Shown here one piece after another: positions 8,818-35,094 of a stretch of 64,000 bases of DNA; within the stretch, counting starts at the first letter, position 1; every line of letters begins with the position of its first letter. The position numbers were made by a program, and so were the translations under genes. Below the pieces are notes generated by a model. That model did no database searches and was not told the DNA's origin. It worked only from the letters and a program-made list of their open reading frames with translations. The DNA comes from Candidatus Limnocylindrales bacterium (GTDB lineage: Bacteria > Verrucomicrobiota > Verrucomicrobiia > Limisphaerales > UBA11358), in assembly GCA_035604955.1 (NCBI GenBank), contig DATNHM010000064.1:42362-106361 (forward strand), in the 5' to 3' direction.

Positions 8818-8901
8818 GCCGGAGGACAGTGGGCGGAGGCCAGAAGACAGAGACCGGACGACGGTGGGCGGAACCGGGAAGCCAGAAAGTTGAGGCAACT
8901 T

Positions 8902-9329: not shown

Positions 9330-9404
9330 GGCGTGTTCGTCTATCGGTTAGGACGCTGGATTCTCAATCCGGAAAGACGGGTTCGATTCCCGTACGCGCT
9401 ACCA
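9330..9404 (+). tRNA. tRNA-Glu(CUC), CCA encoded
   Basis: Manual cloverleaf: acceptor GGCGTGT/ACGCGCT (2 G-U), D arm GTCT-ATCGGTTA-GGAC, anticodon arm CTGGA-TTCTCAA-TCCGG, variable AAAG, T arm ACGGG-TTCGATT-CCCGT, ACCA. Confidence 0.85.
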
Positions 9405-13469: not shown

Positions 13470-13509
13470 GTGTGAAATGGAAGCGTTTCTCCGTCAAGAA
13501 AGAAGGCGG

Positions 13510-13664
13510 GAGACAGAGGCCGGATGACAGAGGTCAGAGGTCAGCAGGGGCAGAAGTCACGAGATCGCGCAGAATATGCGCTTTACGAGGCGTTCCCGAT
13601 TCAGACGTCCTCAAATCGTATATCGTAAATTGTAAATACCGGGACTCCTTACGTCGTCCCCTAC
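13510..13664. repeat. composite repeat: (GACAGAG/GTCAGAG) array, (TTTACGA)/(TCGTAAA)-type heptamer hairpin, REP-A half
   Basis: gagacagaggccggatgacagaggtcagaggtcagcagg; agaatatgcgctttacgag ... caaatcgtatatcgtaaattgtaaatac; ggactccttacgtcgtcccctac (13642..13664). Confidence 0.7.
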
Positions 13665-13720
13665 TATTCAAAAGAGAGGCTTGCGCGGGAGCCGATGGCA
13701 TTTATGATTATCTGGCCATC

Positions 13721-15271: not shown

Positions 15272-15280
15272 TCAAATTGG

Positions 15281-15455
15281 CCGAGGGACGAGAGTCGAGC
15301 GTCGAGAGCAGAAGCAGATACGATATGCGATCGGGGATTTACGAGCTTATTAACGGTGGGGCGAGCGTCCTCGCAAGCCGCAACACCTTTTGCCAAAGCC
15401 GGCTCGTCAGTAGCCTCGCCCCACCACAAATCGAATATCGTAAATCGAAAATGAC
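15281..15455. repeat. composite repeat: (GTCGAGR) array, heptamer hairpin with a REP-B palindrome nested in its loop
   Basis: ccgagggacgagagtcgagcgtcgagag; atacgatatgcgatcggggatttacgag; GGTGGGGCGAGCGTCCTCGCAAGCCG...CGGCTCGTCAGTAGCCTCGCCCCACC (15355..15425); aaatcgaatatcgtaaatcgaaaatgac. Confidence 0.75.
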
Positions 15456-15458
15456 AGC

Positions 15459-17003: not shown

Positions 17004-17054
17004 TTTTTAACCGCAAAGAACGCATAGAACACAAAGCACTTCACCACCTCTTTT

Positions 17055-17465
17055 ATGAAAGACATGACATCGTTGAGCGACCAAATCCGGCAGACGGCGT
17101 ATGACATTCATGTTTACCATGGGCACGGTCATTTGGAGAAAGTGTATAAAAATGCGCTGGCGCATAGGCTACGGAAGGCCGGCTTGGACGTAAAGCAGCA
17201 GCATCCGCTCAAAGTGTTTGACGAGGATGGAACGCTGATTGGTGACTATCTGGCGGACCTGCTGGTGGAAGGAAAATTGATTATTGAATTGAAGACCGCC
17301 AAGGCGTTGGCTGCCGAACATGAAGCGCAAATCCTCGGCTACTTGAAATCGGCGCGCTTGGAGCACGGTTTGCTGATCAATTTCGGTTCTTACAAGTTTG
17401 AAATCCGCAAGTTCGCCTGGAATGAGAATCAATCGCGAAGAACGCAGAGAATCCCCGACTTTTAA
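17055..17465 (+). CDS. GxxExxY protein (PD-(D/E)XK-like family, often found with IVS-type cassettes)
   Basis: GHLEKVY fits GxxExxY; DLLVEGKLIIELK is a nuclease-like core. The gene is bounded by TTAACCGCAAAGARCGCA inverted repeats (17007..17037 / 17465..17497). Confidence 0.8.
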   Translation: MKDMTSLSDQIRQTAYDIHVYHGHGHLEKVYKNALAHRLRKAGLDVKQQHPLKVFDEDGTLIGDYLADLLVEGKLIIELKTAKALAAEHEAQILGYLKSARLEHGLLINFGSYKFEIRKFAWNENQSRRTQRIPDF

Positions 17466-17528
17466 TTCTCTGCGTTCTTTGCGCTCTTTGCGGTTAAATG
17501 AAGGGAAGCAATCGAGAATGATGAACGC

Positions 17529-19073
17529 ATGAAACGGCCACAATTAATCGCTCCCGGCTCGCTCAACCGGATGCTGCAAGAGGCAAACGAAGCCTGGGGA
17601 CGCTGTGACTACCAGCAAAGTTTTGAGTTGCTGGAACGCGCCAGTCGTTTGGATCCGGCCAATACCCGGATCCTGATGCAGTTGGGCCAGTCTTACGGGC
17701 GGCGTTACGATTATGCCGCGGCCGAGCGCTGTTTTGACAAAGCGGTGCGCGTGGCGACAAGAAAAGCCGAGGCACTGGCCGCCGCGGGCCAATTATGCGC
17801 CGATTTTCCCAGCCATCATCTGGCGGAACGATACTATCGGCAGGCGTTAACGCAGAAAGACGTGCCGCCGGAAACGTTCGTCCGATTGGCCGAACTCTGC
17901 GAACGTCTGCGCCGCACCGAAGAAGCCGCCGGGCTGGTGGAGCGGGCATTGGATTTGGACGCCAACTGCGCCTTGGCCCTCCTGACCCAGGCCAGGTTAA
18001 GTCGTCAGGCCGGAAATTTGGAGGAAGCAGAAAAGATTCTTCGCCCGGTCCTGGGATCAGCGCAGCGCGAGATGCGCGTACGTGGTTACTACGAACTGGG
18101 CGCGGTTCTGGACCGCCAGAGGCGCTACGATGAAGCCATGACAGCATTGCTCGAAGCCAAAAAACCGCTGGCCCCCGATGCACCGCCACTTCTGGCAGAG
18201 ATGAAGGTCGTCCGGGCACATGTGCGCCAGATGCTGGACACCCTCTCTGCCGATACAATGCGGCGTTGGTCCGAACGTGACACCGTTCTTGAGCCGCCAC
18301 TCCGGCTCTCCTTATTGTGCGGCCATCCCCGTGCCGGCACAACCTTGCTCGAACAAGTGCTCGACTCGCATCCTGACATCGTCTCAGCGGAAGAAACCGA
18401 GATTTTTCAGGTTGACGCCTATCGTCTGCTGGGACGTAATCTGCCTCCGGATGCGCCCATGCTGACCCTTCTGGATGGCGCACAGGCCGGGACTTTACAG
18501 CAGGCGCGGAAATGCTATTTAACCACAATGTCATCGCTGCTCGGCCAGCCGGTCGGCGCCCGCCTGTTGATTGACAAAAATCCCTCCTACAATGTCCTGA
18601 TTCCGGCGTTTGTTCGCATCTTTCCCGAAACCAGGTTCCTGGTCGCCTTGCGCGATCCCCGGGATATCTGCCTGAGCTGTTTTATGCAGGCGTACGTGCC
18701 ATTGACCAGGGCCAGCGCTCCCTGCATCACCCTGGAGAACACGGTGGAACTCTACCTCTGGCTGATGGGCACATGGCAGACGCTGAAGCCGCTGCTAAAA
18801 AATCCCTGGCTCGAAGTGCGCTATGAAGACATGGTGGAAAATCTGGAACTGTCCGCGCGCAAAACTTTGGATTTCCTCGGCGTCGCCTGGAACCCGGAGG
18901 TGCTAAAGTTTCACGCACATGCCCGGCAGAAAATGGTGCGCACACCCACTTACGCTGACGTGACCCAGCCGGTGTATAAACGCGCCGTCGGCCGCTGGCG
19001 GAATTATCAGAAATATTTCGAGCCGCATCTGGAAAAGCTCGAACCACTCGTGAAGGCGTTTGGGTATGAATAG
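17529..19073 (+). CDS. TPR-repeat sulfotransferase, paralog 3
   Basis: 514 aa; CGHPRAGTTLLEQVLDSHPD and LRDPRDICLSCF motifs. Confidence 0.85.
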   Translation: MKRPQLIAPGSLNRMLQEANEAWGRCDYQQSFELLERASRLDPANTRILMQLGQSYGRRYDYAAAERCFDKAVRVATRKAEALAAAGQLCADFPSHHLAERYYRQALTQKDVPPETFVRLAELCERLRRTEEAAGLVERALDLDANCALALLTQARLSRQAGNLEEAEKILRPVLGSAQREMRVRGYYELGAVLDRQRRYDEAMTALLEAKKPLAPDAPPLLAEMKVVRAHVRQMLDTLSADTMRRWSERDTVLEPPLRLSLLCGHPRAGTTLLEQVLDSHPDIVSAEETEIFQVDAYRLLGRNLPPDAPMLTLLDGAQAGTLQQARKCYLTTMSSLLGQPVGARLLIDKNPSYNVLIPAFVRIFPETRFLVALRDPRDICLSCFMQAYVPLTRASAPCITLENTVELYLWLMGTWQTLKPLLKNPWLEVRYEDMVENLELSARKTLDFLGVAWNPEVLKFHAHARQKMVRTPTYADVTQPVYKRAVGRWRNYQKYFEPHLEKLEPLVKAFGYE

Positions 19074-19074
19074 G

Positions 19075-19187
19075 TAGGGCGGGCAATCCCTTGCACGCCG
19101 GTTGTGGTTGGATGATGGCGGCGCGCACGGAGTGACGCGCCCTACCGGGTTTACGGATCACGGCACGCGCGGAGCGGAGCGCCCTAC
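19075..19187. repeat. cluster of GTAGGGCG-headed REP-like palindromes
   Basis: gtagggcgggcaatcccttgcacgcc; ...gcgcacggagtgacgcgccctac; ...gcgcggagcggagcgccctac. Confidence 0.65.
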
Positions 19188-19214
19188 CGACAAATCGCGC
19201 GCCTGACTCCGAAT

Positions 19215-19889
19215 TCACGCCAGCCTGCGGCGGAACAACATGAGCGCCGCCAAACCCAAACCGCCCAAAGCCAGCGTAGTTGGCTCAGGAATTGAAAAGA
19301 ATGCGAATGGTTGCATAGTGGTCATAAAACCGGGAGGCTGAATTCCCGTGGCAAGCTCTGGTATTGTAAATGGAGCCGATTGCCCCCTCCACATCCCGGC
19401 ACCCTCGGACGCCGCATAGCTCGATCCATTGTAGGCCTCCACTATGAACGTGATCGGGCCTGACGTATAACTTGGAATTTCTACAGCGCCTCCAAAGAAA
19501 TATCCTGGAGCGATTCCCGACGAATACACGCTGCCCGCGCTGGGCAGCGGACCGTCAACCGTGCTGCTGAAGAAGCCGAATGGAACCGGGTACCCACCGA
19601 AGCCTGCGGTACTTGCACCGGAATTGGCTTGCGTAAGCAATGTATAGGAAAAGCCATTCAGTGAATACAGAAGGTCGGCGGTGAATTCGGAACCGACGCC
19701 AAAACCAGCTACAGTAGTCGTCCCACCATTTACCGCTTGTCCCGATGACCCGAACGTGACCGGGGCATAGAAGCGCTCAGCGCCGCTGGCGTAATTTTGG
19801 AAATAAATAGACCCTCCGGCATTCGATGTCGCCACCATGGCCAACAGGCCTGCCAATCCAAGTATTGATGCCAAGATTGCTCTTTTCAT
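19215..19889 (-). CDS. PEP-CTERM sorting-domain secreted protein (Gly/Tyr/Ser-rich), paralog of 24367..25038
   Basis: Signal peptide MKRAILASILGLAGLLAMVATSNA; C-terminus IPEPTTLALGGLGLAALMLFRRRLA. Shares YFQNY, FIVEAYNGS and WRGQSAPF with 24367..25038. Confidence 0.8.
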   Translation of the reverse strand: MKRAILASILGLAGLLAMVATSNAGGSIYFQNYASGAERFYAPVTFGSSGQAVNGGTTTVAGFGVGSEFTADLLYSLNGFSYTLLTQANSGASTAGFGGYPVPFGFFSSTVDGPLPSAGSVYSSGIAPGYFFGGAVEIPSYTSGPITFIVEAYNGSSYAASEGAGMWRGQSAPFTIPELATGIQPPGFMTTMQPFAFFSIPEPTTLALGGLGLAALMLFRRRLA

Positions 19890-20129
19890 ATTGATCCCCT
19901 TCCGTTTTGGTTGATTGGCGATGGGTAAAGACGGATCTTTTCTGAACACAATCATCCTATCTCATTTACTGTGATAATTCAATCACAAACCATAATTTAT
20001 CGAAAAGGCATGGAGGACTGGGCCGGCCGTCGTACCTGCCAGACGGACTTTGTAACCCGATACTCCGCCTGTGTTCGGCGTCAGTGTTGAAAGCACGGAA
20101 AATTGGAGCGCATCCTGACACCGTTCTGG

Positions 20130-20257
20130 GTAGGGACGGCGCGTTGCGCCGTCCGCGCCGCGTCCAGCGGCGCGAGGTCGTGGAAACCCTGGATTCCCAA
20201 GTATTCCTTTCCGCCCGCTACTTCGCGGGCGGGGCCGCCGCAGCGCAGCGGCCCTAC
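20130..20257. repeat. GTAGGG...CCCTAC bounded multi-hairpin REP-like element
   Basis: gtagggacggcgcgttgcgccgtcc ... ggggccgccgcagcgcagcggccctac. Confidence 0.65.
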
Positions 20258-20286
20258 CGGCTAAGGACAGTGTCAAGATGCACGCG

Positions 20287-20372
20287 AAAATTGCGATATG
20301 CGATTTACCATTTACGAAGCTTGTTTGATAATGAGGGCGCGCGTAAATCGCAGATCGTAAATCGAAAATAAC
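20287..20372. repeat. heptamer hairpin module (TTTACGA)n / (TCGTAAA)n abutting a start codon
   Basis: aaaattgcgatatgcgatttaccatttacgaag ... cgtaaatcgcagatcgtaaatcgaaaataac, then caac-ATG (20376). Confidence 0.7.
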
Positions 20373-20375
20373 AAC

Positions 20376-21920
20376 ATGAATCAACCGCAACAGGTTGCTC
20401 AAGGTGCCGTGGCCAGAATGGTCCAAATGGCGGACGCAGCCTGGGAACAGCGCCATTTCCAGCCATGTTTTGAGTTGATGGAGCAGGCCAGCCGTTTGGA
20501 CCCGGCCAATTTTGGGATCCTGCTAAACCTGGGCCAGCGTTATGGGTTGCGCTATGACTACGCCGCGGCTGAACGCTGCTTTGAACAAGCCGTGCGCGTG
20601 GCCAAAGATAAGACCCACGTGCTGACCGCAGCGGGCGAGTTGTCCGACTTTTTCGCCAACCCCAAACTGCCTGAGCAGTATTTTAAAAAGGCCATGGAGC
20701 AACAAGACGCGCCGGCCGGAACTTTCGCCAAAGCGGCGGAATTCTACGAACGTCTGCGGCGGATGGAAGAGGCCTCCACGTCGTTGGACCGCGCATTGCA
20801 ATTGGACCCCAAGTGCGGCCTGGCCTGGCTGGCTCGCGCCCGGCTGCTTCGCCACGCGGGAAACCTGGAGGAAGCCGAAATGGTCCTTCGTCCCATTCTA
20901 ACCACCGCGGAGCGGGAAGTGCGGATTCGCGGCTACTATGAACTGGGCGCCATTCTGGATCGGCAAGGACGTTACGATGAGGCCATGGCGGCCTTTCTGG
21001 AGGCCAAGAAGATATTGCTGGAGAATGCCCGGCCCATGATTGCCAATTTGCTGGCGGGCCGCGCCGTCATCAGACCACGGCGAGCCGACATCAAGGCCGA
21101 GGCCATGCAGGGCTGGTTTGACGCCAGAGCCGAACTCCAGCCATTCCACCGGTTGGCCCTTCTCGCGGGCCATGCGCGCTCGGGGACAACGCTGCTCGAA
21201 CAAGTCCTGGATTCGCACCCGGACATCATCTCAGCGGAGGAAACAGAGATTTTTATGGATGACGCGTTCCTGCCTCTCCGGGCCGGTCTTCCGCCAAATA
21301 TCACCATGTTCGGCGTTCTGAAACTGGCGCAGACCTCCGCCTTGAGACAATCCCGCGAACGCTATTTCCGCACGATGGAGCTGCACTTGAACCAACCCAT
21401 CGGCAACAGGCTGCTGCTTGACAAGAATCCCACGGTCACCTATCGCGTTGCGGCTTTTGCCCGGATTTTCCCGGAAGCAAAGATTCTACTCATGTTGCGG
21501 GATCCGCGGGACGTGGTGATGAGTTGCTTCATGCAACCCTACCTGCACATTGAGGTAACCGGCCTGTCTTATCTCACCCTCGATCTTACCGTTGACGATT
21601 ACACCTTCGTGATGGAGGCGTGGAAAGCCCACGGCCCTTTACTCAAAAACCCGTGCCTGGAAGTGCGCTACGAAGACACCGTGGCCGATTTGGAATCAGT
21701 CTCCCGGCGCGTGCTGGACTTTCTGGGCGTGTCCTGGGACGCCTCGGTGCTGAAATTTGACGAGCACGCGCGAACCAGGAAGGTGAAGTCGCCCACCTAC
21801 GCCGATGTGACCCAGCCGGTCTATAAGCGCGCCCAGGGCCGCTGGCGGAATTATGAGAAATATCTGAAGCCGTATCTGCCCAAATTGGAGCCGTTCGTGA
21901 AGGCGTTTGGGTATCAATAG
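20376..21920 (+). CDS. TPR-repeat sulfotransferase, paralog 4
   Basis: 514 aa; AGHARSGTTLLEQVLDSHPD (P to A in the PSB loop) and LRDPRDVVMSCF. Confidence 0.85.
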   Translation: MNQPQQVAQGAVARMVQMADAAWEQRHFQPCFELMEQASRLDPANFGILLNLGQRYGLRYDYAAAERCFEQAVRVAKDKTHVLTAAGELSDFFANPKLPEQYFKKAMEQQDAPAGTFAKAAEFYERLRRMEEASTSLDRALQLDPKCGLAWLARARLLRHAGNLEEAEMVLRPILTTAEREVRIRGYYELGAILDRQGRYDEAMAAFLEAKKILLENARPMIANLLAGRAVIRPRRADIKAEAMQGWFDARAELQPFHRLALLAGHARSGTTLLEQVLDSHPDIISAEETEIFMDDAFLPLRAGLPPNITMFGVLKLAQTSALRQSRERYFRTMELHLNQPIGNRLLLDKNPTVTYRVAAFARIFPEAKILLMLRDPRDVVMSCFMQPYLHIEVTGLSYLTLDLTVDDYTFVMEAWKAHGPLLKNPCLEVRYEDTVADLESVSRRVLDFLGVSWDASVLKFDEHARTRKVKSPTYADVTQPVYKRAQGRWRNYEKYLKPYLPKLEPFVKAFGYQ

Positions 21921-22082: not shown

Positions 22083-22195
22083 GTCGAGGGTCGAGGGACG
22101 AGAGTCAGAGAATTTACGATATACGATTGACGATTTACGACACCTTTCGACCAAATGGCACCGCGCGTAAATCGTATATCGTCAATCGCAAATAG
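22083..22195. repeat. (GTCGAGG) array plus heptamer hairpin module, left flank of the HigBA-like cassette
   Basis: gtcgagggtcgagggacgagagtcagag; aatttacgatatacgattgacgatttacga - 25 nt - cgtaaatcgtatatcgtcaatcgcaaatag. Confidence 0.75.
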
Positions 22196-22486
22196 TTATG
22201 CCGGCACCAATTCAATCTTCACCTTGCGTCCCAAAGCACGGGCGGCTTTGCCCAGCGTGTTCAGTGTAACCGAGGAGTTCGACGCGTCCAGCAACCGGTC
22301 CACCGCTGCGCGGCTCGTTTTCATGCGCGCGGCCATTTGCGTCTTGGTCAATTCCCTCTCTTTCAAGAGGCGATCCAATTGGAGACTCAACGCCTGTTTC
22401 AGCGCGCGTGCCTCGACTTCGCCCAGGATGCCTTGTTCTTTCAGGAAATCCCGGAAGTCACTGCCACGATGATTTCTTTTGCTCAT
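22196..22486 (-). CDS. higA: XRE-family HTH antitoxin (HigA-like)
   Basis: 96 aa; LTKTQMAARMKTSRAAVDRLL HTH. 4-nt overlap downstream of the toxin gene (toxin-first order as in higBA). Confidence 0.7.
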   Translation of the reverse strand: MSKRNHRGSDFRDFLKEQGILGEVEARALKQALSLQLDRLLKERELTKTQMAARMKTSRAAVDRLLDASNSSVTLNTLGKAARALGRKVKIELVPA

Positions 22487-22779
22487 AGGTTTTGCAGATA
22501 TTGTCTTTTACGTTTCCTGGCCAAATCCAGTTCATCTGGCGGCGTCTTTTGTTGTTTCTTGATGAAACCGTGCCGCAGGACAATTTCCTGATCCACCACC
22601 GCAAATAACGTTCGCGCGATGCGTTTATCCAACCGTGAACGGACTTCCCAAACGCCGTCACCCAAATTGGCAACCAGCGGCTTCCCGACCGGCCACGCAT
22701 ATTGCACCGTCAGAATGTCCGTGCCGATGGCCTGGCAGTCCTCTTTAGACAATGCTTTCAGATTCCCGCACAGGCTCAT
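22483..22779 (-). CDS. higB: RelE/ParE-superfamily toxin (HigB/Gp49-like)
   Basis: 98 aa; GDGVWEVRSRLDKRIARTLFAVVDQEIVLRHGFIKKQQKTP is typical of the Gp49/HigB family. Confidence 0.7.
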   Translation of the reverse strand: MSLCGNLKALSKEDCQAIGTDILTVQYAWPVGKPLVANLGDGVWEVRSRLDKRIARTLFAVVDQEIVLRHGFIKKQQKTPPDELDLARKRKRQYLQNL

Positions 22780-22913: not shown

Positions 22914-22999
22914 GATTTACGATATACGATATACGATTTATGAGGCCCTTTCGATAAGGTAACGCAGCGCGTAAATCGTATATCGTCAATCGAAAATGA
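22914..22999. repeat. heptamer hairpin module, right flank of the HigBA-like cassette
   Basis: gatttacgatatacgatatacgatttatga - 26 nt - cgtaaatcgtatatcgtcaatcgaaaatga; a near-copy of 22111..22195. Confidence 0.75.
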
Positions 23000-23141
23000 T
23001 GGGACTCCTGGCGTCGTCCCCCACTATTTGGCAGTAGGCGCCGAGGTAACGAGGCGAGGACTCCTCACGTCGTCCCCTACTATCTTCAGTAGGCGCCGAG
23101 GTCACGAGGCCCTGGACTCCTTACGTCGTCCCCTACTTTCT

Positions 23142-24074
23142 TTACCGGGTTTTCCGCGAACTGCGGAACGGCAACTTTCGGTCGCCGGCCTCAGGCTGAC
23201 GTTGCCGCTGGTATAACTTCCAAAACTTCGGCCAGAAATCCTCCTGCCACGGATGCAACGTGGGATAGCCGGGAACAATGGCGCCACCATAGGGCCAATC
23301 AGTAGGAGCCGAGGTCACAAGGCTGGACTCCCCACGTCGTCCCCTACCATCTTCCGTAGGAGCCGAGGTCACGAGGCTGGACTCCTTACGTCGTCCCCTA
23401 CCATCTTCTGTAGGAGCCGAGGTCACGAGGCTGGACTCCCCACGTCGTCCCCTGCCATCTTCCGTAGGAGCCGAGGTCACGAGGCTGGACTCCTTACGTC
23501 GTCCCCTACTATCCCCTGCGGCGATCAATCCAGCCCGAACGGGATTGGCCAGGATGTAAAAACAGATCCTCGCAAAGGCATCGTGCTTCCTTTCCTCATC
23601 ACTCAAGACGTGGTCGTGCGCCTGCGGCTGAAATTTGTGCGGCGCCAAGCGCGGTTCCAGGTGCGTCCGTAAAAATGACATGGCGTTTCGCTGGTCCGTG
23701 TCGCACCGCAGTCCCAGCCACAGCAGATGAATGTGGTCGGGCATCAGACAGTAAGCCGGGCACAGCAACCCTTCCCGCGCGGCGGCGTGGAGCAACAGCT
23801 CACGGAATCCGCAGTGAAAGGCGGCATTCAACCAGCCGGTGGCCCGGTCAAATACCGTCAGGGTCCAGTGAACCGCGGCGTCGCCCCGATAAAATTCCGG
23901 GTCCAGGCGGGGAAGATGACCCGGATGTTTAGTAGGGGACGACGTAAGGAGTCCAGGCCTTGACGTGTCCAGTCTCTCCTCACGCCTCGTTACCTCGGCG
24001 CCTACTGGCCGCGGGGTACCAGTAGGGGACGACGTGAGGAGTCCGGGTCTGGGGATTTCCTGGTCCTCATTCAC
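23142..24074 (-). CDS. REP-associated tyrosine transposase (IS200/IS605-type Y1 HUH, RAYT-like), with REP-derived N-terminus and internal REP tract
   Basis: HUH motif in YCLMPDHIHLLW and catalytic-Tyr motif FYILANPVRAGL. About 48 N-terminal aa and 72 internal aa (4 x GRGRRKESSLVTSAPTED) are translations of REP-A; true start uncertain. Confidence 0.7.
   Translation of the reverse strand: MNEDQEIPRPGLLTSSPTGTPRPVGAEVTRREERLDTSRPGLLTSSPTKHPGHLPRLDPEFYRGDAAVHWTLTVFDRATGWLNAAFHCGFRELLLHAAAREGLLCPAYCLMPDHIHLLWLGLRCDTDQRNAMSFLRTHLEPRLAPHKFQPQAHDHVLSDEERKHDAFARICFYILANPVRAGLIAAGDSRGRRKESSLVTSAPTEDGRGRRGESSLVTSAPTEDGRGRRKESSLVTSAPTEDGRGRRGESSLVTSAPTDWPYGGAIVPGYPTLHPWQEDFWPKFWKLYQRQRQPEAGDRKLPFRSSRKTR
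23302..23509. repeat. four tandem REP-A units, 54-bp period, in frame within the RAYT CDS
   Basis: GTAGGAGCCGAGGTCACRAGGCTGGACTCCYYACGTCGTCCCCTRC + 8-bp linker; unit starts at 23302, 23356, 23410, 23464. Confidence 0.9.
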
Positions 24075-24300
24075 GAGGCCGATATAGCAGAGACTCGTTA
24101 CCTCGTCTCCTACTATTTTCAGTGGGAGCCGAGGTGACGAGGCTGGGACTCCTCACGTCGTCCCCTACTATTTTGGGAGGCAGTAGGCGCCGAGGTAACG
24201 AGACGGGGCAAGGGACTCCTTACGTCGTCCCCTACTATTTTCGGTAGGAGCCGAGGTAACGAGGCTCGGACTCCTTACGTCGTCCCCTACTGAGATAACG

Positions 24301-25722: not shown

Positions 25723-25820
25723 ATTCTGTTTCTGTTTTAGTTTTACCGTGTGTGTCACCAATATCTCAGAATGCAAGGGGGGTGTCAACGATTTTTTGAG
25801 ATTTTTTGAACGATTTTGAG

Positions 25821-26207
25821 GGTGACGGGTGACGGGTGACGTGTGACTAGAACTGATTGGCTATCAACGACTTGTGCTATAATCGTCTCACGCGTCAGAG
25901 GTCACATGTCACCGGGGAAAAGAGGAAAAAGCGCTTTGTAACCAGTTTGTAACCAGTTTTAAAGGAGTTGAGGGTTGAGAGTTGAGGGTTGAGAGAAAGG
26001 GAAAAAGTCCAGGAATGTCGCTAATGTGCGCTAATTATTAAGATTAATACAGGGTCATTGCCGCCAAAAGGCGCCCGTCTGCGTCAGCTCCCGTCTTCAC
26101 TGCGTTACGCCGCGGCGAGTCGAGGCGGCAAGGAGGGCGGTAGTCAGCAGTCAGTGGTCAGTAGTTGGTAGTCAGTAGTCAGTAGTTTTTAGCGGTTACC
26201 CGTCACA
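25821..26207. repeat. intergenic field of concatenated short-period arrays
   Basis: (GTGACGG)x3.5 25821..25847; tttgtaaccag x2; (TTGAGGG/TTGAGAG)x4 25967..25995; ctaat/attaag tract; (CAGYAGT)x6-TTTTT-agcggttacccgtcac 26140..26207. Confidence 0.85.
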
Positions 26208-26318
26208 TTTCAAAGGCGGAAGCGGAGGGCTGAATTGAACCATTTTTAACGCGAAGACGCCAGGACGCAACGAGGTGAAGGAATGCGGGGAAGATGAGAA
26301 TCGGCAGTATCCTGATTT

Positions 26319-27325: not shown

Positions 27326-27486
27326 GCAGCACACCCCGGTCATCATCGCGCTCCGCAGCGCGGCAACGGTTCCGGAAACCACTGGTGGCCTGGGGTTGCG
27401 CCGATATATTTTCCAAAAATTGACGTCATCGGCGTTTGACCTTTTAACCGCGGGTTACACGGATTTTTGACGCGAAGAGGGGAAGT

Positions 27487-27709
27487 CCGCGTAAAAGGCT
27501 GGCGCCTCACGCGGCGGGCCCCGTAAAAGGCGGATGCCTCACGCGGCGGGGCCAACCACGGAATTCAACCACGGATGAACACAGATGAACACGGATGAAC
27601 GCGGATTTTTAGACACGAATTGCACGAATTTTCACGGATAAAGCCGCAAAGCGGCACAAAAGGCACAAGGGCGGAAAGAAAAAGGTTGAAGGCTGAAGGC
27701 GGTGAAGGG
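27487..27709. repeat. tandem 32-bp repeat followed by four concatenated short-period arrays
   Basis: ccSCGTAAAAGGCKGRYGCCTCACGCGGCGGG x2 (27487..27551); (ACGGATGA/ACAGATGA) array ending TTTTT; (CACGAATT)x2; (GCRGCACAAA)x3; (GGYTGAAGG)x3. Confidence 0.8.
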
Positions 27710-28536: not shown

Positions 28537-29838
28537 TCAGCCATTACTCGCCTGCACCAAAATTTTAAGGGAATCCGAAGTTGGTTTGGCGGCCAAAGCC
28601 ACGGCTTCCGCGGTTTGTTCCAACGGAAAGCGATGCGTGATCAACCGGCGCACGTCGAGCCGGCGGGAAAAGACCAGACGCGCGACTTCGGACTGCAAAG
28701 TGAAATCCGACGAGTAGCTGCCGATGAGGTCTTTCTCGTCCAGACAAATTGACGCGAGGTCAATTGGGGAGATTGGGGATGGGAGTTGGGAGTTGGGAGG
28801 AATGGCCACCTCACCCGCATCAAATAATGTTTTCCCTTTAACCCTCACCCGACCTTTGGCCACCCTCTCCCGCTCCCGCGAGCGAGGGGTCTGGCTTTCT
28901 CCCCTGCCATCTGCCATCTGCCATCTGCCATCTGCTCTTTTGGTGTGAGCGAAAAGGAGGACCTGGCCGCCGCCGCGGACGAGGGCCAACGCCTGATGCA
29001 CGGCGGCATCGGAGGAAACGGCGATGATGGCGGCGTCCAAATTGGGAATTGTAGGAGACGAGGTGACGAGCCTCTTATTCATCCCAGGTTTTGGATTTCG
29101 GACTTCGAGTTTTTCAGTTAGAGCCTCGTCACCTCGGCTCCTACTGACATTAATCGTCCAGCGGGCGCCGAATTTTTTGGCGAGTTTCAACCTGGATTCG
29201 AGCAAATCGGTGGCGAGGACGCGCGCGCCGGCGAGTTGCAGCAAGCGCGTGAACATCAGGCCAATCGGCCCCTGCCCCGCCACCAACACAACGTCGCCGC
29301 GCAACAGGTTCAATCGCCGGACGGCCTTGAGCACGGTGTTGACGGGCTCCAACATCGCGCCTTCTTCAAAAGAGTTTTTCGCCGGGATTTTCACGACGCC
29401 GGGCAGGACGAAGGGCATGACGCAGACGTATTCGGCGTAGCCGCCGCCCGCCGGTTCGAAACCGGCGGTGATGCCGGTGCGTTTGTAGGTTTCGCATTGG
29501 GCAAAGGCGTGGTGCCGGCAATAATGGCAATCCAGGCAGGGCACGTGATGGTGGAGGGCGACGCGGTCGCCGACTTTGAGTGACGAGTGACGGGTGACGA
29601 GTGACGGGTTTCCGGCGCCGATCTGGACGATGGTGCCGGCGGTTTCGTGGCCGAAGATGCGCGGGGGCGGGACGGTGCCGTGCTGGATTTTTTTGATGTC
29701 GGTGGGGCAGACGCCGCAGACGGCGACCTTGACGAGCAGTTCATTCGGGCCGAGGCGCGGGACGGGGACGGTTTCGAGGCGCAGGTCGTTGACGCCGCGA
29801 TAAACGACGGCGCGCATGGTTTTGGGAATGGCGAACAC
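28537..29838 (-). CDS. zinc-dependent medium-chain alcohol/threonine dehydrogenase family protein carrying three in-frame repeat insertions
   Basis: GVCPTD, GHE, structural-Zn cluster CLDCHYCRHHAFAQC, Rossmann VAGQGPIG. It has extra segments relative to typical MDR dehydrogenases, encoded by repeats at 29578..29608, 29051..29144 and 28763..28935. Start at 29838 or 29817. Confidence 0.8.
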   Translation of the reverse strand: MFAIPKTMRAVVYRGVNDLRLETVPVPRLGPNELLVKVAVCGVCPTDIKKIQHGTVPPPRIFGHETAGTIVQIGAGNPSLVTRHSSLKVGDRVALHHHVPCLDCHYCRHHAFAQCETYKRTGITAGFEPAGGGYAEYVCVMPFVLPGVVKIPAKNSFEEGAMLEPVNTVLKAVRRLNLLRGDVVLVAGQGPIGLMFTRLLQLAGARVLATDLLESRLKLAKKFGARWTINVSRSRGDEALTEKLEVRNPKPGMNKRLVTSSPTIPNLDAAIIAVSSDAAVHQALALVRGGGQVLLFAHTKRADGRWQMADGRGESQTPRSRERERVAKGRVRVKGKTLFDAGEVAIPPNSQLPSPISPIDLASICLDEKDLIGSYSSDFTLQSEVARLVFSRRLDVRRLITHRFPLEQTAEAVALAAKPTSDSLKILVQASNG

Positions 29839-29850
29839 GGGGGAGTTTTA

Positions 29851-30104
29851 ACCGCGGATGACGCGGATGACACGGATTTTTTTGACGGAAAGACGACTAA
29901 CCGCAAAGAGGCAAAGACGCAGAGAACACTGGAAGATCAGGATTAAGAGTAAGATTAAGATTAAGATTTTTGGCGGAACCGTGAAAGACACGAAATTTTA
30001 GACACGGATTACACGGATAAACACGGATTTTTTGAAGGAGTCAGCAGTCAATAGTCAGTGGTCAGCAGCTTTTTACGCGTCACCTGTCACACGCCACATG
30101 TCAC
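29851..30104. repeat. field of six different short-period arrays, most ending in a T-run
   Basis: (CGGATGA) 29851..29883; (GCAAAGA/CGCAGAG) 29899..29934; (GATTAAG) 29938..29971; (ACACGGAT) 29985..30034; (GTCAGYA) 30040..30075; (CGYCACN) 30076..30104. Confidence 0.85.
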
Positions 30105-31922
30105 TCATTGGGGTGGCGGGGCCAAAAAGGTGTGGAGGCCGATCGGGAATTGGGGAGATTCCAACCAGTCGGCCAGAAGATTTAACTCGATACCGGTGAA
30201 ACCGATGGTGGATTTGCGGGTGAAGGACAGTTGATTGGGGCCGGTTTGGGTAATGACGGTGAGACTGGCGCCGAGCCTGGGAGCAATGTCTTTAAGCCAG
30301 AGCGTCGCCGGAGCACTGAATGGCAACTGGTCCTTATTGCAAACAAGGCGGGCAAACTGGCCCATGTAAAGCCATTGTTCGGTTCGCGGGCCGGTGATTT
30401 CCCAATCGTAATAGACCGCATTGGTCCGGTTCAAGACGGCTTGCAGCGATTGAAGCGACAGTGGCAGGGCAGGTGGTATTGGTTGGAACGCGCCGCCAAA
30501 AATGAAGCTCTGGCGGTTGATGTTCGTATAAAGCACGAATGGGTACATATATGGGACGCCCTTCCACTCCAAGCCGTTGAAGGCGGCAGATTTTTCGAAC
30601 TTTGAAAGACCGTTTGTCGGAAACCAGCGGTATTGCTTTCGCAAGACCAAATCGGTCAGCCTGGAAACCGTGTTGCTGGCTTCCGGGAGCGGCGTCGCGA
30701 AATAGCTGAGCATATTAAGCCCCGGCATCGCCCAAAAACAGATCTGATCCGGCGGCGGGCCGATTTGGAGATTAGTCCAGAATGGCGATGAGGCCAGCCA
30801 GGGCTGGAATCCCCGAATGGCAGTGAAACCGGACAGATGTTCATCAATCAGATTGGTGGGGATGTTCCACGGTTTCAGTTCGAGCGCCAGCGGCTCCGGA
30901 AAATCGACCGTGCCGTTCAACAAGACGTTGGTGACGTCACCGGTCGCGGACAGATGAAGGCGGTTGAGAGTGAAAATGTCTTTCGAACCCACCTCACCCC
31001 GGCCACTGGATTTGTTCTCATCCCCACCACCCTCAACCGCCCTGTGGGCACCTTCTCCCGCTCCCGCGAGCGAAGGAACTTCCCCCGCTGTACGGGCGGA
31101 GAGGGAGAAGACAGCGGCGAGTCGCGCCGGGTCGAGGTCGGCTTCGAGCCAGTCTCCCGGGTTCCGTACGTTCCAGGGCGGCAGGGCACGGTGCGTTCGG
31201 AGCCGCAGTTCGGCAATCAAACCATTGAAGTCTTCAGCCGCCCCCACGATGGTCCACGCGCCAATACGGGTCAGCTCAATGACGTTGGGGGAATGATGCT
31301 TTTTGAGCGACCAGCCGTATGAACCCTGAGGTGCCGGGACAGGCTGGAGGCTGGTCAATGATTCCAGGACCGCGGCGAGATTGGTCTGCCACAAGGCGGC
31401 GCGCTGGTCGTCCAGCCGGATGGCCAAGGCAAGCTCAGCCGGTTGATTGGCTACCTGACGAATTTCCAGATACGACTCACCGGCGACCAGATCGTCCAGC
31501 AACGGCCGCAAAAGAGCGGCGGCATTGGTGTCAAGGTTGCGATGCAGCAAAGGCCAGGGGGCGAGGGAAAGTTTGTCCAGGGTTTGTTGTTCGAGCCGCC
31601 GGCTTTCGGGCAGGTTCCAAATCGTCAGCAAAGAAGCCGCATTGGTCCCGCCGGAGAGCTGTTTCATTCCCGACCAGTGAACGCGGGCAACAATCGGCAT
31701 GGAAGCCGTCGGCGGCGTCTGGCCCGGAGGCGTGTTTTCGGCGGACTGGGCTGGCCGGGCGCCGGCCAGCAACATAACGGCGGCAAACAGGATGAATAGG
31801 TTTCCATTTTGCCCGGAAAATCGTTTGCCGTATAACGATTTTGCCGGATGCAAAAAGGCAACGCGTGGCATGTTCATTATCCGCTGTTTTATGCCAAAAC
31901 CAGGGGCCATCGGCAATTTCAA
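30105..31922 (-). CDS. hypothetical secreted protein (no recognised domain), contains one in-frame ~105-bp repeat element
   Basis: 605-aa ORF with a hydrophobic N-terminal segment LFILFAAVMLLAGARPAQS; start ambiguous among M1/M16/M18. Confidence 0.55.
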   Translation of the reverse strand: MKLPMAPGFGIKQRIMNMPRVAFLHPAKSLYGKRFSGQNGNLFILFAAVMLLAGARPAQSAENTPPGQTPPTASMPIVARVHWSGMKQLSGGTNAASLLTIWNLPESRRLEQQTLDKLSLAPWPLLHRNLDTNAAALLRPLLDDLVAGESYLEIRQVANQPAELALAIRLDDQRAALWQTNLAAVLESLTSLQPVPAPQGSYGWSLKKHHSPNVIELTRIGAWTIVGAAEDFNGLIAELRLRTHRALPPWNVRNPGDWLEADLDPARLAAVFSLSARTAGEVPSLAGAGEGAHRAVEGGGDENKSSGRGEVGSKDIFTLNRLHLSATGDVTNVLLNGTVDFPEPLALELKPWNIPTNLIDEHLSGFTAIRGFQPWLASSPFWTNLQIGPPPDQICFWAMPGLNMLSYFATPLPEASNTVSRLTDLVLRKQYRWFPTNGLSKFEKSAAFNGLEWKGVPYMYPFVLYTNINRQSFIFGGAFQPIPPALPLSLQSLQAVLNRTNAVYYDWEITGPRTEQWLYMGQFARLVCNKDQLPFSAPATLWLKDIAPRLGASLTVITQTGPNQLSFTRKSTIGFTGIELNLLADWLESPQFPIGLHTFLAPPPQ

Positions 31923-31933
31923 TTACGGTCGGC

Positions 31934-31993
31934 GGTCAGCAGTCAGTAGTCAGTAGTTTTTACCCGTCCCTTGTCACTCGTCACTCGTCACGC
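31934..31993. repeat. composite module (CAGYAGT)n-TTTTTA-(CCGTCAC-like)n
   Basis: ggtcagcagtcagtagtcagtagtttttacccgtcccttgtcactcgtcactcgtcacgc; same architecture as 30040..30104 and 26140..26207. Confidence 0.85.
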
Positions 31994-32679: not shown

Positions 32680-32775
32680 CATGTGGCGAGTGGCGGGTGG
32701 CGAGAGACGCGATTTTGCCGCCGGCCGCCCACAGCTATCCCCTCTCGTCACCCGTCACCTGTCACCTGTCACTCT

Positions 32776-33240: not shown

Positions 33241-33258
33241 TTCGCCCATGCCCCCCCC

Positions 33259-33368
33259 CGGCTCGTCAGTAGCCTCGCCCCACCGCCTAGCGGGATGTGA
33301 CGAGTGACGAGTGACGAGTGACATGAAAAGCGCGGACCGTTGACTGCTGACTACTGACTTTTGACTGC
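33259..33368. repeat. REP-B half copy, (GTGACGA)x4 array and (TGACTRC)x4 array
   Basis: cggctcgtcagtagcctcgccccacc 33259..33284; gtgacgagtgacgagtgacgagtgac 33297..33323; ttgactgctgactactgacttttgactgc 33340..33368. Confidence 0.8.
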
Positions 33369-33414
33369 AGCGTTTTTGCTTTCGCTGCCGCGCCGCCTTT
33401 GTTAAAGAAATCGC

Positions 33415-34344
33415 GTGCGCAAACTGTTTTGGATCATTTTAAGCCTGGGCCTTGGCGGCGGGTTCGCCACCACCCGCGCCGATACGCTTCAACTGGCGGA
33501 TGGCACCTCGGTTTCCGGCGACATTGTCATGATCAACGACAGCGGCGTCAAACTCCGGCTGCCGGACGACACCTATACCAACGTGGTATGGCCGAAGTTC
33601 TCCCAGGACGCGTTGAAGCAGCTCGGCAAAAACCCGAAAGCCAAATCGTTCGTCGAGCCGTTTATCGAAACCCCGCCGCCGCAACCCAAAAACGAGGCCA
33701 TCGAAATCCGCGACGTGTCGCGCCCGGAGTTGCCGCCGCCGGGTTCCCTGTTGGCAACGCTGCTGTCCTCGTCGGTGGGTTTTGTCGCCCTGTTGTTGAT
33801 TTACGCGGCCAACATCTACGCCGCCTATGAAATCGCCATCGTGCGCGCGCGACCCATCGGGATGGTGATGGGGGTGGCGGCGGTGTTGCCGATTCTGGGG
33901 CCGATTATTTTCCTTTCCCTGCCGATGCGCACGGAGGCGCCGCCGGATGAAACGCAAACCGAGGCGGAAGCACAGACCTACGCGGTGCCGGGCGCGGCGG
34001 CGCCGGTGGCGGCAGGCCTGTCCACGACGGGCATCCGCGTCGCCCCAGCGGGGGCGAAGGCCGGGCACCCGGAAGCCCAGGTGTTCCAGCGCGGCCAGTT
34101 CATGTTCAACCGCCGGTTTTTTGAAACGAAATTCTCCGGTTTCTTCAGTGTGATCCGGCGGCCGGCGGAAAAAGACCTGGTGCTCGTGATCAAAACCGCG
34201 CGCGCCCAGTTGATTGCCCAGCGCATCAGCCGCATCGCCGCCAACGAAGCGTACTTCGAGGTGGTCCAGGGCGGGAAGTCGCAGGAGGTCATGGTGCCGT
34301 TCGCCGACATCCAGGAAATTCAACTCAAACACAAGGACGCGTGA
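33415..34344 (+). CDS. hypothetical membrane protein
   Basis: GTG start; signal-like N-terminus MRKLFWIILSLGLGGGFA; two central TM helices; no motif recognised. Confidence 0.5.
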   Translation: MRKLFWIILSLGLGGGFATTRADTLQLADGTSVSGDIVMINDSGVKLRLPDDTYTNVVWPKFSQDALKQLGKNPKAKSFVEPFIETPPPQPKNEAIEIRDVSRPELPPPGSLLATLLSSSVGFVALLLIYAANIYAAYEIAIVRARPIGMVMGVAAVLPILGPIIFLSLPMRTEAPPDETQTEAEAQTYAVPGAAAPVAAGLSTTGIRVAPAGAKAGHPEAQVFQRGQFMFNRRFFETKFSGFFSVIRRPAEKDLVLVIKTARAQLIAQRISRIAANEAYFEVVQGGKSQEVMVPFADIQEIQLKHKDA

Positions 34345-34435
34345 AGAGTGACACGTGGCGAGTGACGGGTGACGTGAAGGACAGCCCGGTCCTGCGCCAA
34401 ATGTTCCCGTCACCCGCCACCCGTCACCCGGCACC
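34341..34435. repeat. inverted pair of (GTGACGR)/(CGTCACC) arrays forming a long hairpin
   Basis: gtgaagagtgacacgtggcgagtgacgggtgacgtgaagg - 26 nt - ccgtcacccgccacccgtcacccggcacc. It spans the upstream stop codon and ends 3 nt before the adk ATG. Confidence 0.8.
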
Positions 34436-34438
34436 CCT

Positions 34439-35017
34439 ATGAAATACCGCACGATTCTCATGTTTGGCGCGCCCGGCTCGGGCAAGGGCACGCATGGCCG
34501 GAACCTCGGCGTCATTCCGGGTTTTTTCCATTGCGCCTGCGGCGACGTCTTCCGCAACCTCCGTCCGGACAGTCCGCTCGGCAAAGTCTTTCTCGAACAT
34601 TCCAGCCAGGGCGAGCTGGTGCCGGACCAGCCGACGATTGAACTCTGGCGGCAATACATTGAAACCAGCACGAAAATCGGGCGGTTTCATCCCGGCGAGG
34701 ACACGCTGGTGCTCGACGGCATTCCCCGGAGCGTGCCGCAGGCTGAGATGTTGAGCGACACGCTCGACGTCGTGGCCATGTTTTACCTTACTTCCAGCCG
34801 GGAAAACCTCGTCGCCCGCATGCAGCGCCGCGCCATGAAGGACAACCGCCTCGACGACGCGAACCTCGACGTCATCCGCCAGCGCCTCAAGACTTACGAG
34901 AAGGAAACCAAGCCCGTCATCAATTTCTACGGCAAGAAGCTCGTCCACCGCATCAACACCGACCAGCCGCCGGTAAAGACGTTTCTCGACATCCTCAAAC
35001 AGGTCGTGAAGCTTTGA
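34439..35017 (+). CDS. adk: adenylate kinase family protein
   Basis: P-loop GAPGSGKGT, then CACGDVFR and LVLDGIPRS motifs. Confidence 0.75.
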   Translation: MKYRTILMFGAPGSGKGTHGRNLGVIPGFFHCACGDVFRNLRPDSPLGKVFLEHSSQGELVPDQPTIELWRQYIETSTKIGRFHPGEDTLVLDGIPRSVPQAEMLSDTLDVVAMFYLTSSRENLVARMQRRAMKDNRLDDANLDVIRQRLKTYEKETKPVINFYGKKLVHRINTDQPPVKTFLDILKQVVKL

Positions 35018-35030
35018 CCGCTCAAAAATT

Positions 35031-35094
35031 GTAGCAGCGGACGTGAGTCCGCTCCATATTTCTGAGAAATGAGCCGACTCATGTCGGCTGCTAC
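35031..35094. repeat. inverted REP doublet of a GTAGCAGC-headed class
   Basis: GTAGCAGCGGACGTGAGTCCGCTC (35031..35054) and its near-complement gagccgactcatgtcggctgctac (35071..35094); each arm has its own 6-bp hairpin. Confidence 0.75.

Follow-up and report, generated by a model that had tools for sequence, protein, structure and literature searches.

We describe here an intergenic field of short tandem arrays at positions 29846-30107 of a 64,000-nt stretch of contig DATNHM010000064.1 (assembly GCA_035604955.1, Candidatus Limnocylindrales bacterium); this whole stretch is called the window below. The field lies between two co-directional genes of the minus strand, one coding for a protein of 590-605 amino acids (aa) and the other for a Zn-dependent alcohol/iditol dehydrogenase-like enzyme (ADH). 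We tentatively propose, at a probability of roughly 45%, that the field is a spacer composed almost entirely of short array modules from a repeat population specific to one clade of uncultured Verrucomicrobiia from soil and peat, that these modules are of two classes, and that they spread by a copy-and-insert process. Seen against array-poor relatives, modules of both classes are insertions, and the only arrangements in which they occur leave gene function intact: from stop to start codon within operons, or in frame and in stop-free orientation within enzymes.

The array field

Tandem Repeats Finder (TRF) and direct reading resolve the field into six successive short tandem arrays with periods of 9, 8, 6, 9-10, 7 and 7 nt (coordinates of all features are given in Table 1). 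A first-pass annotation, made from the same DNA, had located six arrays and four T-runs correctly, but some of its units and periods were wrong. Period 7, taken there as the rule, holds for only two of the six arrays (arrays 5 and 6), and the units described as unrelated include those of arrays 1 and 4, which have a CACGGAT core in common. Runs of T5-T7 follow four of the six arrays on the plus strand; on the sense strand of the flanking genes, an A-run leads four of the six.

Four of the arrays belong to the first class, which we call P. Its layout is directional: the A-tract comes first, then about three units from the ATCCGTG, TTTCGTG or TCTYTGCG family, each of 6-11 nt, and finally GYGG(T/C)TAAA. 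The second class, H, comprises the two arrays beside the stop codon of the upstream gene. The field is thus not the heptamer field it had been taken for, as most of its arrays represent a directional class of 8-11-nt modules. In modules P1 and P3, about three ATCCGTG-type units are followed by GYGGYTAAA or its variant GTGTCTAAAA, and the related GCGGTTAG closes the octamer module P2. P3 is a second copy of the P1 family and is kept in two related loci (L008, L007; related loci are numbered from L001). The octamer family of P2 is found directly upstream of ADH in other lineages, the distant L056 included, and the ATCTTA array occurs in the same order in L004 and L007.

Higher-order organization is conserved in class H as well. 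The order of units in the (CTGACNN)x4 string of array 5 is retained, and the same string is present in L008, L007, L010 and L006; its family, ACTACTG, has a complementary partner in none of nine cases. Together with array 6 it forms a composite, (GTGACNN)n-A4-5-(CTGACNN)n, which is found on both sides of the upstream gene and, at the orthologous site, in five genomes. A third copy is on the plus strand and likewise has (GTGACNN)n first. The folding of the field, on either strand, is no better than that of shuffled sequences (z -2.3 to +1.6).

Leader modules of class P

The ADH start codon is probably the conserved ATG at 29828, which places the TAAA of P1 about 29 nt upstream of it. Among 84 unique ADH leaders from metagenomes, which are orthologues of one locus and therefore represent conservation and not independent recurrence, 70 carry the terminal motif, whose TAAA is at a distance of 28-30 nt from the ATG. 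The A-run ends 22-25 nt upstream of this motif in 42 of the 70. The unit between the two varies in period (8, 9, 10 or 11 nt) and in sequence (ATCCGTG, TTTCGTG, ATCTGTG, TCTYTGCG). A co-directional start of a long open reading frame (ORF) lies 10-75 nt downstream of 15 of 38 other modules, compared with 3 of 38 on the control side.

This arrangement resembles the geometry of a promoter: the A-tract would lie near -45 to -39, the repeats would fill the spacer, and TAAAAY would be an element with a partial match to the -10 hexamer. The proximal subsite of UP elements is located at about -46 to -38. Modules of class P may thus act as portable promoter or leader elements, and the T-runs would be, viewed from the opposite strand, the A-tracts with which each module begins on the sense strand.

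Heptamer arrays and hairpins at gene junctions

Period-7 arrays are abundant throughout the window: 33 non-redundant arrays are detected by TRF, compared with 1.5 expected from second-order Markov simulations (maximum 5), and six exact runs of at least three copies are present, with none in the simulations. The claim of window-wide period-7 arrays is therefore sound, and the period spectrum shows the predicted sharp excess at 7. The 33 arrays use 18 distinct canonical heptamers and about 27 of them lie outside confirmed coding sequence. Arrays of periods 6-10 occupy 2.3% of the window, most of them within its non-coding part of about 15%. The two further fields indicated by the first-pass annotation (about 25789-26293 and 27440-27709) are real.

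In related loci (described below), 220 heptamer arrays fall into 84 canonical units, of which a few families dominate: CGTAAAT, GATGTTC/GAATGTT, GTGACNN, ACTACTG and GTTGAGG. The idea that arrays arise regardless of unit sequence is hard to maintain, as this handful of recurrent families prevails and whole composites recur. The median copy number is 4.0, the mode 4-5, and only 14 of the 220 reach six or more copies. Repetition of the units is not perfect: the core is conserved and positions in the spacer vary, and many arrays are listed by TRF at 76-95% matches. The stop-codon content of the units differs only modestly from that of random heptamers.

Many of these arrays are paired. A complementary partner is located within 150 nt of 85 of the 220 arrays (39%), a threshold passed by 1% of mock-complement controls. 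Such inverted pairs fold to long hairpins (z -3.2 to -6.0), whose stems of 5-6 bp are broken every 7 nt. Arms match each other better within a locus (median score 10-13) than across loci (6).

In the conserved DUF6580-metallophosphoesterase-hyp309-adk-fmt operon, each spacer consists of the stop codon, four heptads, a loop of 25-40 nt, four complementary heptads and the ATG, and the unit at the same operon site varies by lineage (GTGACNN, GTGAAAC, GAAGGAC or GTTTTGA). Cassettes armed with GTGACNN and those armed with GTTTTGA are patchily distributed relative to protein identity. Arrays abut start codons that lack a Shine-Dalgarno (SD) sequence and overlap stop codons. The hyp309/adk junction is an example of insertion: in the array-poor L012, L037 and L060 it is a 4-nt TTGA stop/start overlap, and in 15 other loci it holds an insert of 76-138 nt, mostly a heptamer-armed hairpin cassette. 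Two such cassettes are present in the operon of the window. The one between DUF6580 and metallophosphoesterase has a minimum free energy of -47.4 kcal/mol (z = -5.0). A tract of 150 nt centred on the other, hyp309-adk cassette (34325-34474) is 100% identical to L038, compared with about 89% for the rest of the 1.6-kb alignment, which suggests strong constraint or a recent short recombination tract.

In the spacer between metallophosphoesterase and hyp309 (33241-33414; orthologues in L003-L021), a core of 55 nt, GTAAATTTGCTTTCGC...CTTTGTTAAAGAAA, is conserved and immediately precedes the start codon in each relative. Every repeat insertion there lies upstream of the core, and the length of the spacer ranges from 55 to at least 400 nt.

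Arrays inside coding sequences

Arrays also reside within conserved enzymes. ADH of the window has 433 aa and is about 90 aa longer than its solved homologues (about 350 aa). Its orthologues range from 363 to 458 aa and combine cores of about 75-80% identity with three or four hypervariable sites, where each relative carries a different insert, all of them in frame. Besides the five inserts of the window, relatives have (AACTTCG)n, the inverted pair GTCGAGA...CTCGACC (L008, L015) and other small palindromic elements at these sites. An array of about 4.5 units codes for no more than about 10 residues, too short a stretch for a seven-residue periodicity to be read from the 120 dehydrogenase homologues compared. 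An AlphaFold2 model of ADH built on a 27-sequence alignment reached a mean pLDDT (predicted local distance difference test) of 41 and was unusable.

A second case is MiaB, in whose radical-SAM domain an inverted pair of GTGAC heptamer arrays is translated in frame (z = -6.0 for the hairpin). The pair amounts to about 18 extra residues relative to a Bacteroides structure, and in the single unit that would bring TGA into frame, TGG stands in its place.

Other repeat families of the window also enter ADH. Tandem repeats of 54-56 nt based on GTAGGAGCCGAGGTCACGAGGCTGGACTCC... form three blocks (23002-23142, 23302-23513 and 24092-24291), which lie in part within an ORF of 310 aa that has no Pfam family; the adk-fmt spacer (35031-35094) and the palindromic ADH insert at about 29048-29145 are made up of the same family of elements. 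A dispersed element, GGTGGGGCGAG(G/C)..., is present at 15355, 15415, 21971, 28407, 28477, 28524 and 33274, and its tandem copies of 39-48 nt encode GASVLASRSNS... inserts in ADH of L006 and L010. An element made of a CCCTCTCCC...GGGAGAGGG hairpin and GGTGAGGGT is intergenic at 5794-5986, lies in frame in ADH site 3 (28841-28871) and occupies ADH site 1 in L003 and L015.

Distribution among relatives and stability

Syntenic loci were obtained by a scan of species-representative genomes that used the neighbouring metallophosphoesterase, and they provide a graded series of relatedness. The names of homologues and of the nearest species-representative genomes place the window among uncultured Verrucomicrobiia, in agreement with the supposed PVC-type (Planctomycetes-Verrucomicrobia-Chlamydiae) origin of the window; more distant ones are labelled Limisphaerales or Pedosphaera. 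In 21 loci of closer relatives, 220 period-7 arrays occur in 299 kb (7.4 per 10 kb), compared with nine in 264 kb (0.34 per 10 kb) in 25 outgroup loci, so the arrays are not confined to the window. Periods 8-10 are raised only 2- to 4-fold in closer relatives over outgroups. Some close relatives, for example L012 (CAVXLF01), are array-free; CAVRPQ01 and CAVPSH01 are examples of array-rich ones. Array-rich and array-poor sisters are syntenic, which allows empty and filled sites to be compared base by base.

Arrays are present in dozens of metagenome-assembled genomes (MAGs) and metagenome contigs. The string (GTGACNN)3GTGAC was found in at least 120 viral-labelled contigs of IMG/VR (L086-L205), several with long arrays at contig ends; GTGAC-type heptamer arrays therefore extend well beyond the clade. 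Among the IMG/VR matches listed, 501 heptamer arrays occur in 1.1 Mb with a GC content of 0.32 to 0.69, a span which implies several host lineages.

On the time scale of strains, the arrays are not hypermutable microsatellites. L001, a metagenome contig of the Joint Genome Institute, matches the window over 21.3 kb at 99.986%, and L002, a contig from another sample, differs by one mismatch in 2 kb. Two independent metagenome assemblies give the arrays with identical bases, and these are therefore not artefacts of assembly. Copy number differs from the window in neither of them, and six near-identical pairs of metagenome ADH loci with 1-7 heptamer arrays each are likewise free of copy-number changes and indels, at the level of consensus assemblies, in which minority variants would be hidden. 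At 2.6-4.5% divergence, array-bearing blocks of 48 and 87 nt differ in two clean cases. The comparison of indels comprises the near-identical pairs and these two block indels, as replaced segments align too noisily to test whether lengths are multiples of 7.

Only three differences separate the window from L001 over the 21.3 kb, at 27566, 33297 and 37107. Two of them are at array edges: an indel of 1 nt preceding the CACGGATGAA array, and a substituted first base in the GTGACGA array.

Association with GxxExxY nuclease genes

Modules of class P are also found around genes for a PD-(D/E)XK nuclease of the GxxExxY family. The window contains a single such gene, bracketed by inverted (TCTYTGCG)3-GGTTAAA modules of 31 nt (17006-17036 and 17468-17498), whose arms are 87% complementary. 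Inverted array modules lie within 150 nt of GxxExxY genes in six of six independent loci (the window and five others), the pairs being confirmed by the repeat tool in four and by eye in two, among them L045, where the tool found no pair. Proteins of L326, L337 and L345 are 80-100% identical to that of the window and are accompanied by the same TCTYTGCG family. Those of L026 and L045 share only 32% identity with the protein of the window and are accompanied by different units: in L026 CCTGATTT, within arms of 35 nt on either side of the gene, and in L045 AGATTAGCG. The GxxExxY family is very abundant in metagenomes, and no description of its function was found in the searchable literature. From the arrangement of these sequences it would seem that small nuclease cassettes and the gene-less hairpins derived from them have class P as their terminal repeat.

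The GxxExxY gene of the window is situated between two paralogous genes for TPR-sulfotransferases. Together with the downstream module, the last 30 nt of the gene make a hairpin of 19 nt and 95% complementarity, of which they are the left arm.

A more specific proposal follows this association, and we consider it doubtful. The array modules would be cognate ends of an undescribed small mobile element, whose autonomous form of about 0.5 kb would encode nothing but the GxxExxY nuclease, enclosed by tandem-array termini in inverted orientation. Gene-less derivatives would then be the single arrays and the array-armed hairpins, which would colonise gene junctions, supply leaders or promoters without SD sequences and insert in frame into enzymes. 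DNA recognition by the nuclease would set the period and unit of the array, so that different units would go with different nuclease variants. If the link to GxxExxY holds, such repeats would have their first candidate agent, and a large protein family would gain a function. It would also mean that housekeeping enzymes of free-living soil bacteria tolerate repeated in-frame selfish DNA, a condition best known from Rickettsia.

Proposed mode of spread and alternatives

In the explanation that we favour, modules would be spread by copying and insertion at the level of DNA, either as non-autonomous mobile elements or by templated insertion. Occasional slippage of units might accompany this spread, as distinct from the ongoing slippage of microsatellites. 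Hairpins from stop to start would be tolerated because the base of the stem holds the two codons adjacent, and translational coupling may therefore be preserved. Class P modules would serve both as portable leaders or promoters and as termini of GxxExxY cassettes. Among the mechanisms suggested by the first-pass annotation, the best fit is a family of elements that end in arrays, given the hairpin cassettes of about 95 nt and the inverted arrays at GxxExxY genes; active slippage does not fit, as copy numbers cluster at 4-5 with few above six and the copy-number comparison found near-identical strains unchanged.

A number of observations weigh against copy-and-insert spread. No transposase, RAYT (REP-associated tyrosine transposase) or reverse transcriptase was detected among about 46 ORFs of the window scanned against Pfam. 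[quoted passage not shown] Copying and insertion offers no explanation of the preference for 7 nt, of the length of four units or of the agent of spread. TGA is present on both sides of inserts at two junctions, which could be a target-site duplication; the requirement for a stop at the left and ATG-A at the right explains it equally well. The orthologous adk-fmt site varies in a slippage-like manner between species, from one unit (L012) and two (L018) to 4-5. The link to GxxExxY comprises six loci only and concerns class P modules of 8-10 nt, not heptamers. As to function, the conserved leaders belong to one locus, and because a consensus scan of the field calls no sigma-70 promoter, a promoter role of class P is something we infer. 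Sense and antisense strands of about 60 orthologous spacers show no consistent bias in folding, so a role of the hairpins at the RNA level is unproven.

Ordinary simple sequence repeats (SSRs), grown in situ by replication slippage with an intrinsic bias towards 7 nt and neutral, immobile and functionless, are an improbable alternative. Heptamer SSRs are reported to be over-represented in many bacterial genomes, and the footprint of the polymerase has been put forward as an explanation (PMC4692102, citing Mrazek 2007). Slippage would agree with the graded copy numbers at the adk-fmt site and with two of the three differences from L001 being at array edges. It leaves the paired inverted arms unaccounted for, as well as the looped cassettes of about 95 nt at junctions that formerly measured 0 nt. 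Copy number peaks at 4-5 with almost no long arrays and does not change in strain-level pairs; the imperfect units keep their core, variable spacer and higher-order order, and unrelated sites and different genomes share the same few families and composites. Pure slippage is thus disfavoured. Selection at gene boundaries for binding of a protein to nucleic acid, whether a post-transcriptional regulator of the S1, Csp or CsrA type such as has been put forward for TAACTGA repeats, a nucleoid protein or a transcription factor, we likewise regard as unlikely. The constant GTGAC core with its variable NN spacer would suit a binding site, and so would the leader geometry fixed in 70 of 84 orthologues and the 150-nt hairpin tract, identical between genomes that are about 89% identical elsewhere. 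Arrays next to SD-less starts and over stops are moreover a property of TAACTGA repeats (PMC4679880). Yet 84 different units exceed what a single protein would bind, modules face both ways relative to transcription, arrays occur also within coding sequences, where a binding role is unlikely, L012 manages without arrays at the same junctions although it is a close relative, and no candidate protein was identified.

The first-pass annotation had also described arrays as closed by T-runs and had asked whether these runs coincide with 3' ends. That the runs mark transcription terminators or 3' ends of small RNAs is very improbable. T5-T7 does follow four of the six field arrays on the plus strand, and runs of T or A are about 2.4-fold enriched beside heptamer arrays. 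Both flanking genes are nevertheless on the minus strand, so the runs are antisense to them and appear as A-tracts in their transcripts. No GC-rich hairpin precedes any run and a terminator scan of 29839-30104 gave no match. The field, which folds like its shuffles, matched nothing in Rfam 15 at gathering score, a scan of the window with which returned only the tRNA at 9330-9401. Nor is closure by a run a general rule: at least four T after or four A before the array are found in just 19% of the 220 heptamer arrays, compared with 8% of nearby controls. Chance or an assembly artefact is practically negligible in view of the 33 period-7 arrays against 1.5 expected, the identical sequence in independent assemblies from different samples and the dozens of MAGs and contigs that carry arrays. 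Resemblances to CsrA-type GGA motifs, to the core sites of integron attC (GTTRRRY) and to heptamer/nonamer signals of the V(D)J type came to mind and were dropped, as none fits structurally.

Relation to known repeats

Heptamer tandem repeats, namely short tandemly repeated repetitive (STRR) sequences and their relatives, have been known since 1990. Like these, the arrays described here are tandem 7-nt units, mostly intergenic and of lineage-specific abundance. STRR and other heptamer SSRs are mostly intergenic, with several unit types per genome, some inverted pairs and no known function (PMC4692102). The analogy with STRR drawn by the first-pass annotation is thus fair (PMC4692102, PMC4679880). 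The hosts are nonetheless different, cyanobacteria in the case of STRR and Verrucomicrobiota here, where 84 canonical heptamers are in use and GTGACNN is the commonest. Known STRR units are CCCCAGT, TTGGTCA and CAACAGT, none of which matches any of the top 40 canonical units here, which represent the great majority of the 220 arrays. Related SSRs are GGGGAYT in Nostoc and GGGAATC in Xanthomonas, the latter with 2-26 units as against about four here. Cassettes of hairpins from stop to start, frequent in-frame occupation of enzymes, a second, directional class of 8-11 nt and the lack of G-quadruplex potential further separate the present arrays from the STRR type.

TAACTGA repeats occur in 2-6 copies before SD-less starts in Beggiatoaceae, some Cyanobacteria and Bacteroidetes, with patchy phylogeny; in forward orientation they have stops in all frames and overlap upstream stop codons, and in reverse orientation they are found inside ORFs (MacGregor 2015; PMC4679880). 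Placement before SD-less starts, overlap with stops, the stop-free orientation within ORFs and a patchy distribution are shared by our arrays. TAACTGA is however a single unit with one indirect repeat, as opposed to many families and 39% inverted pairing here, and our inserts are located deep in conserved domains (radical-SAM of MiaB, ADH) and not solely at the ends of proteins. Mycobacterial interspersed repetitive units (MIRUs) are intercistronic repeats of operons, with units of 40-100 bp and ends that overlap flanking stop and start codons. They are alike in position and in their ends, but they are not heptamer hairpins.

Rickettsia palindromic elements (RPEs) are small palindromic repeats that keep the reading frame of the unrelated housekeeping genes they occupy and whose translation adds a peptide segment (PMC10969869). 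Insertion in frame with the ORF kept is likewise seen at ADH sites 1-3 and in MiaB. RPEs measure about 100-150 bp, have a family consensus and no internal periodicity and are restricted to Rickettsia; inserts here are arrays of 28-33 nt or array-armed hairpins with locus-unique loops. MITEs, repetitive extragenic palindromic (REP) sequences and their doublets (REPINs) are short, intergenic, hairpin-forming inverted repeats, non-autonomous and abundant in particular lineages (PMC3116915; PMC10969869). The hairpin cassettes, which measure about 95 nt and have arms of about 28 nt, are MITE-like in their terminal inverted repeats and in a size within the 50-500 bp of MITEs, and so are the inverted arms of 31-35 nt around GxxExxY genes in being terminal inverted repeats. 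A shared interior is missing, as the loops match only themselves or orthologues. REPINs and MITEs have a consensus over their full length and a known or inferred transposase (RAYT or that of an insertion sequence), whereas here only the arms are shared and these are tandem arrays; neither RAYT nor insertion sequences were seen in the window, and the sole associated gene family is the GxxExxY nuclease. Contingency-type microsatellites are a poor match as well: copy number does not vary among strains, units are not homogeneous and the distribution of lengths is narrow.

Closest in kind are therefore STRR, TAACTGA and the heptamers of Xanthomonas and Nostoc, with in-frame behaviour like that of RPEs and hairpins like those of REPINs and MITEs. 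Membership in each of these families fails on units, host, interior consensus or transposase. No description of repeats of this kind in Verrucomicrobia was found in the literature.

Table 1. Coordinates of array modules and associated features in the window
Feature	Position	Strand	Description
Array 1	29854-29876		(GCGGATGAC)x2.8, period 9; then T7 at 29877-29883
Array 2	29902-29925		(CGCAAAGA)x3, period 8
Array 3	29933-29968		(AAGATT)x6, period 6; T5 at 29967-29971
Array 4	30002-30029		(ACACGGATT)x3, period 9-10; T6 at 30028-30033
Array 5	30040-30069		(GTCAGNN)x4.3, period 7, too degenerate for TRF; T5 at 30070-30074
Array 6	30078-30105		(YGYCACN)x4, period 7; overlaps stop codon of gene 30105-31922
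Leader module P1	29846-29883	minus	Sense: A7 + TCCGTGTCA TCCGCGTCA TCCGCGG + TTAAAA
Octamer module P2	29897-29927	minus	TCTCTGCG TCTTTGCC TCTTTGCG + GTTAG
Hexamer array	29933-29971	minus	Sense: A5, then (AATCTT)x6
Module P3	29995-30033	minus	A6 + TCCGTGTTTA TCCGTGTAA TCCGTGT + CTAAAAT
Heptamer array	30040-30074	minus	Sense: A5, then (CTGACNN)x4, degenerate
Heptamer array	30078-30107	minus	(GTGACNN)x4; starts in TGA stop (30105-30107) of upstream gene
Upstream gene	30105-31922	minus	590-605 aa, no Pfam family
Second composite	31935-31991	minus	GTGAC array, A-run, CTGAC array
Third composite	33297-33359	plus	(GTGACNN)n first
Hairpin cassette, DUF6580/metallophosphoesterase	32680-32775	plus	Stop, (GTGGCGN)x3, 40-nt loop, (CGTCACC)x4, ATG
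Hairpin cassette, hyp309/adk	34345-34438	plus	z = -4.7
ADH gene	28537-29838	minus	Zn-dependent alcohol/iditol dehydrogenase-like
ADH insert	29578-29606		(GTCACTC)n, translated as SLVTRHSSL
ADH insert	29048-29145 (approximate)		Palindromic element
ADH insert	28904-28935		(ATGGCAG)n, translated as ADGRWQMADGR
ADH insert	28841-28871		GGGAGAGGG/GGTGAGGGT element
ADH insert	28767-28799		(AACTCCC)n
MiaB array pair	52681-52744	minus	Inverted GTGAC heptamer pair; predicted peptide WRVTRDASVSSPVTR
GxxExxY / PD-(D/E)XK_3 gene	17055-17465	plus	
Second field	25789-26293		T-rich decamers, GGGTGAC hairpin (25820-25912), GTTGAGG, GTAGTCA+T5, reversed octamer module (26244-26275)
Third field	27440-27709		TTTTAACC-(CACGGATGAA)n-T5 modules at 27443-27470 and 27556-27611; 32-nt tandem at 27490-27550
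ATTTACG/CGTAAAT hairpin	22112-22193		Twin at 22914-22997

Other features of the window

The two ATTTACG/CGTAAAT hairpins, whose loops are unrelated, enclose a Gp49/HTH (helix-turn-helix) toxin-antitoxin operon on the minus strand (22196-22779). An HNH protein with weak similarity to the HNH region of IscB/Cas9 is encoded at 8146-8817; adjoining its gene are that of a four-helix-bundle, Avd-like "23S rRNA intervening sequence" protein (8890-9285) and the tRNA.

Arrays inflate the prediction of ORFs in MAGs of Verrucomicrobia, as they give rise to N-terminal extensions and to spurious low-complexity "proteins". Four paralogous TPR-sulfotransferase genes, at 13472, 15459, 17529 and 20376, lie in the region 13472-21920, together with a gene for APS kinase at 12927-13469. 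CGTAAAT-type arrays lie in or just upstream of at least three of these ORFs (13472, 15459 and 20376), two of the arrays ending 6 nt before the ATG, and longest-ORF calls of the paralogues read through the arrays.

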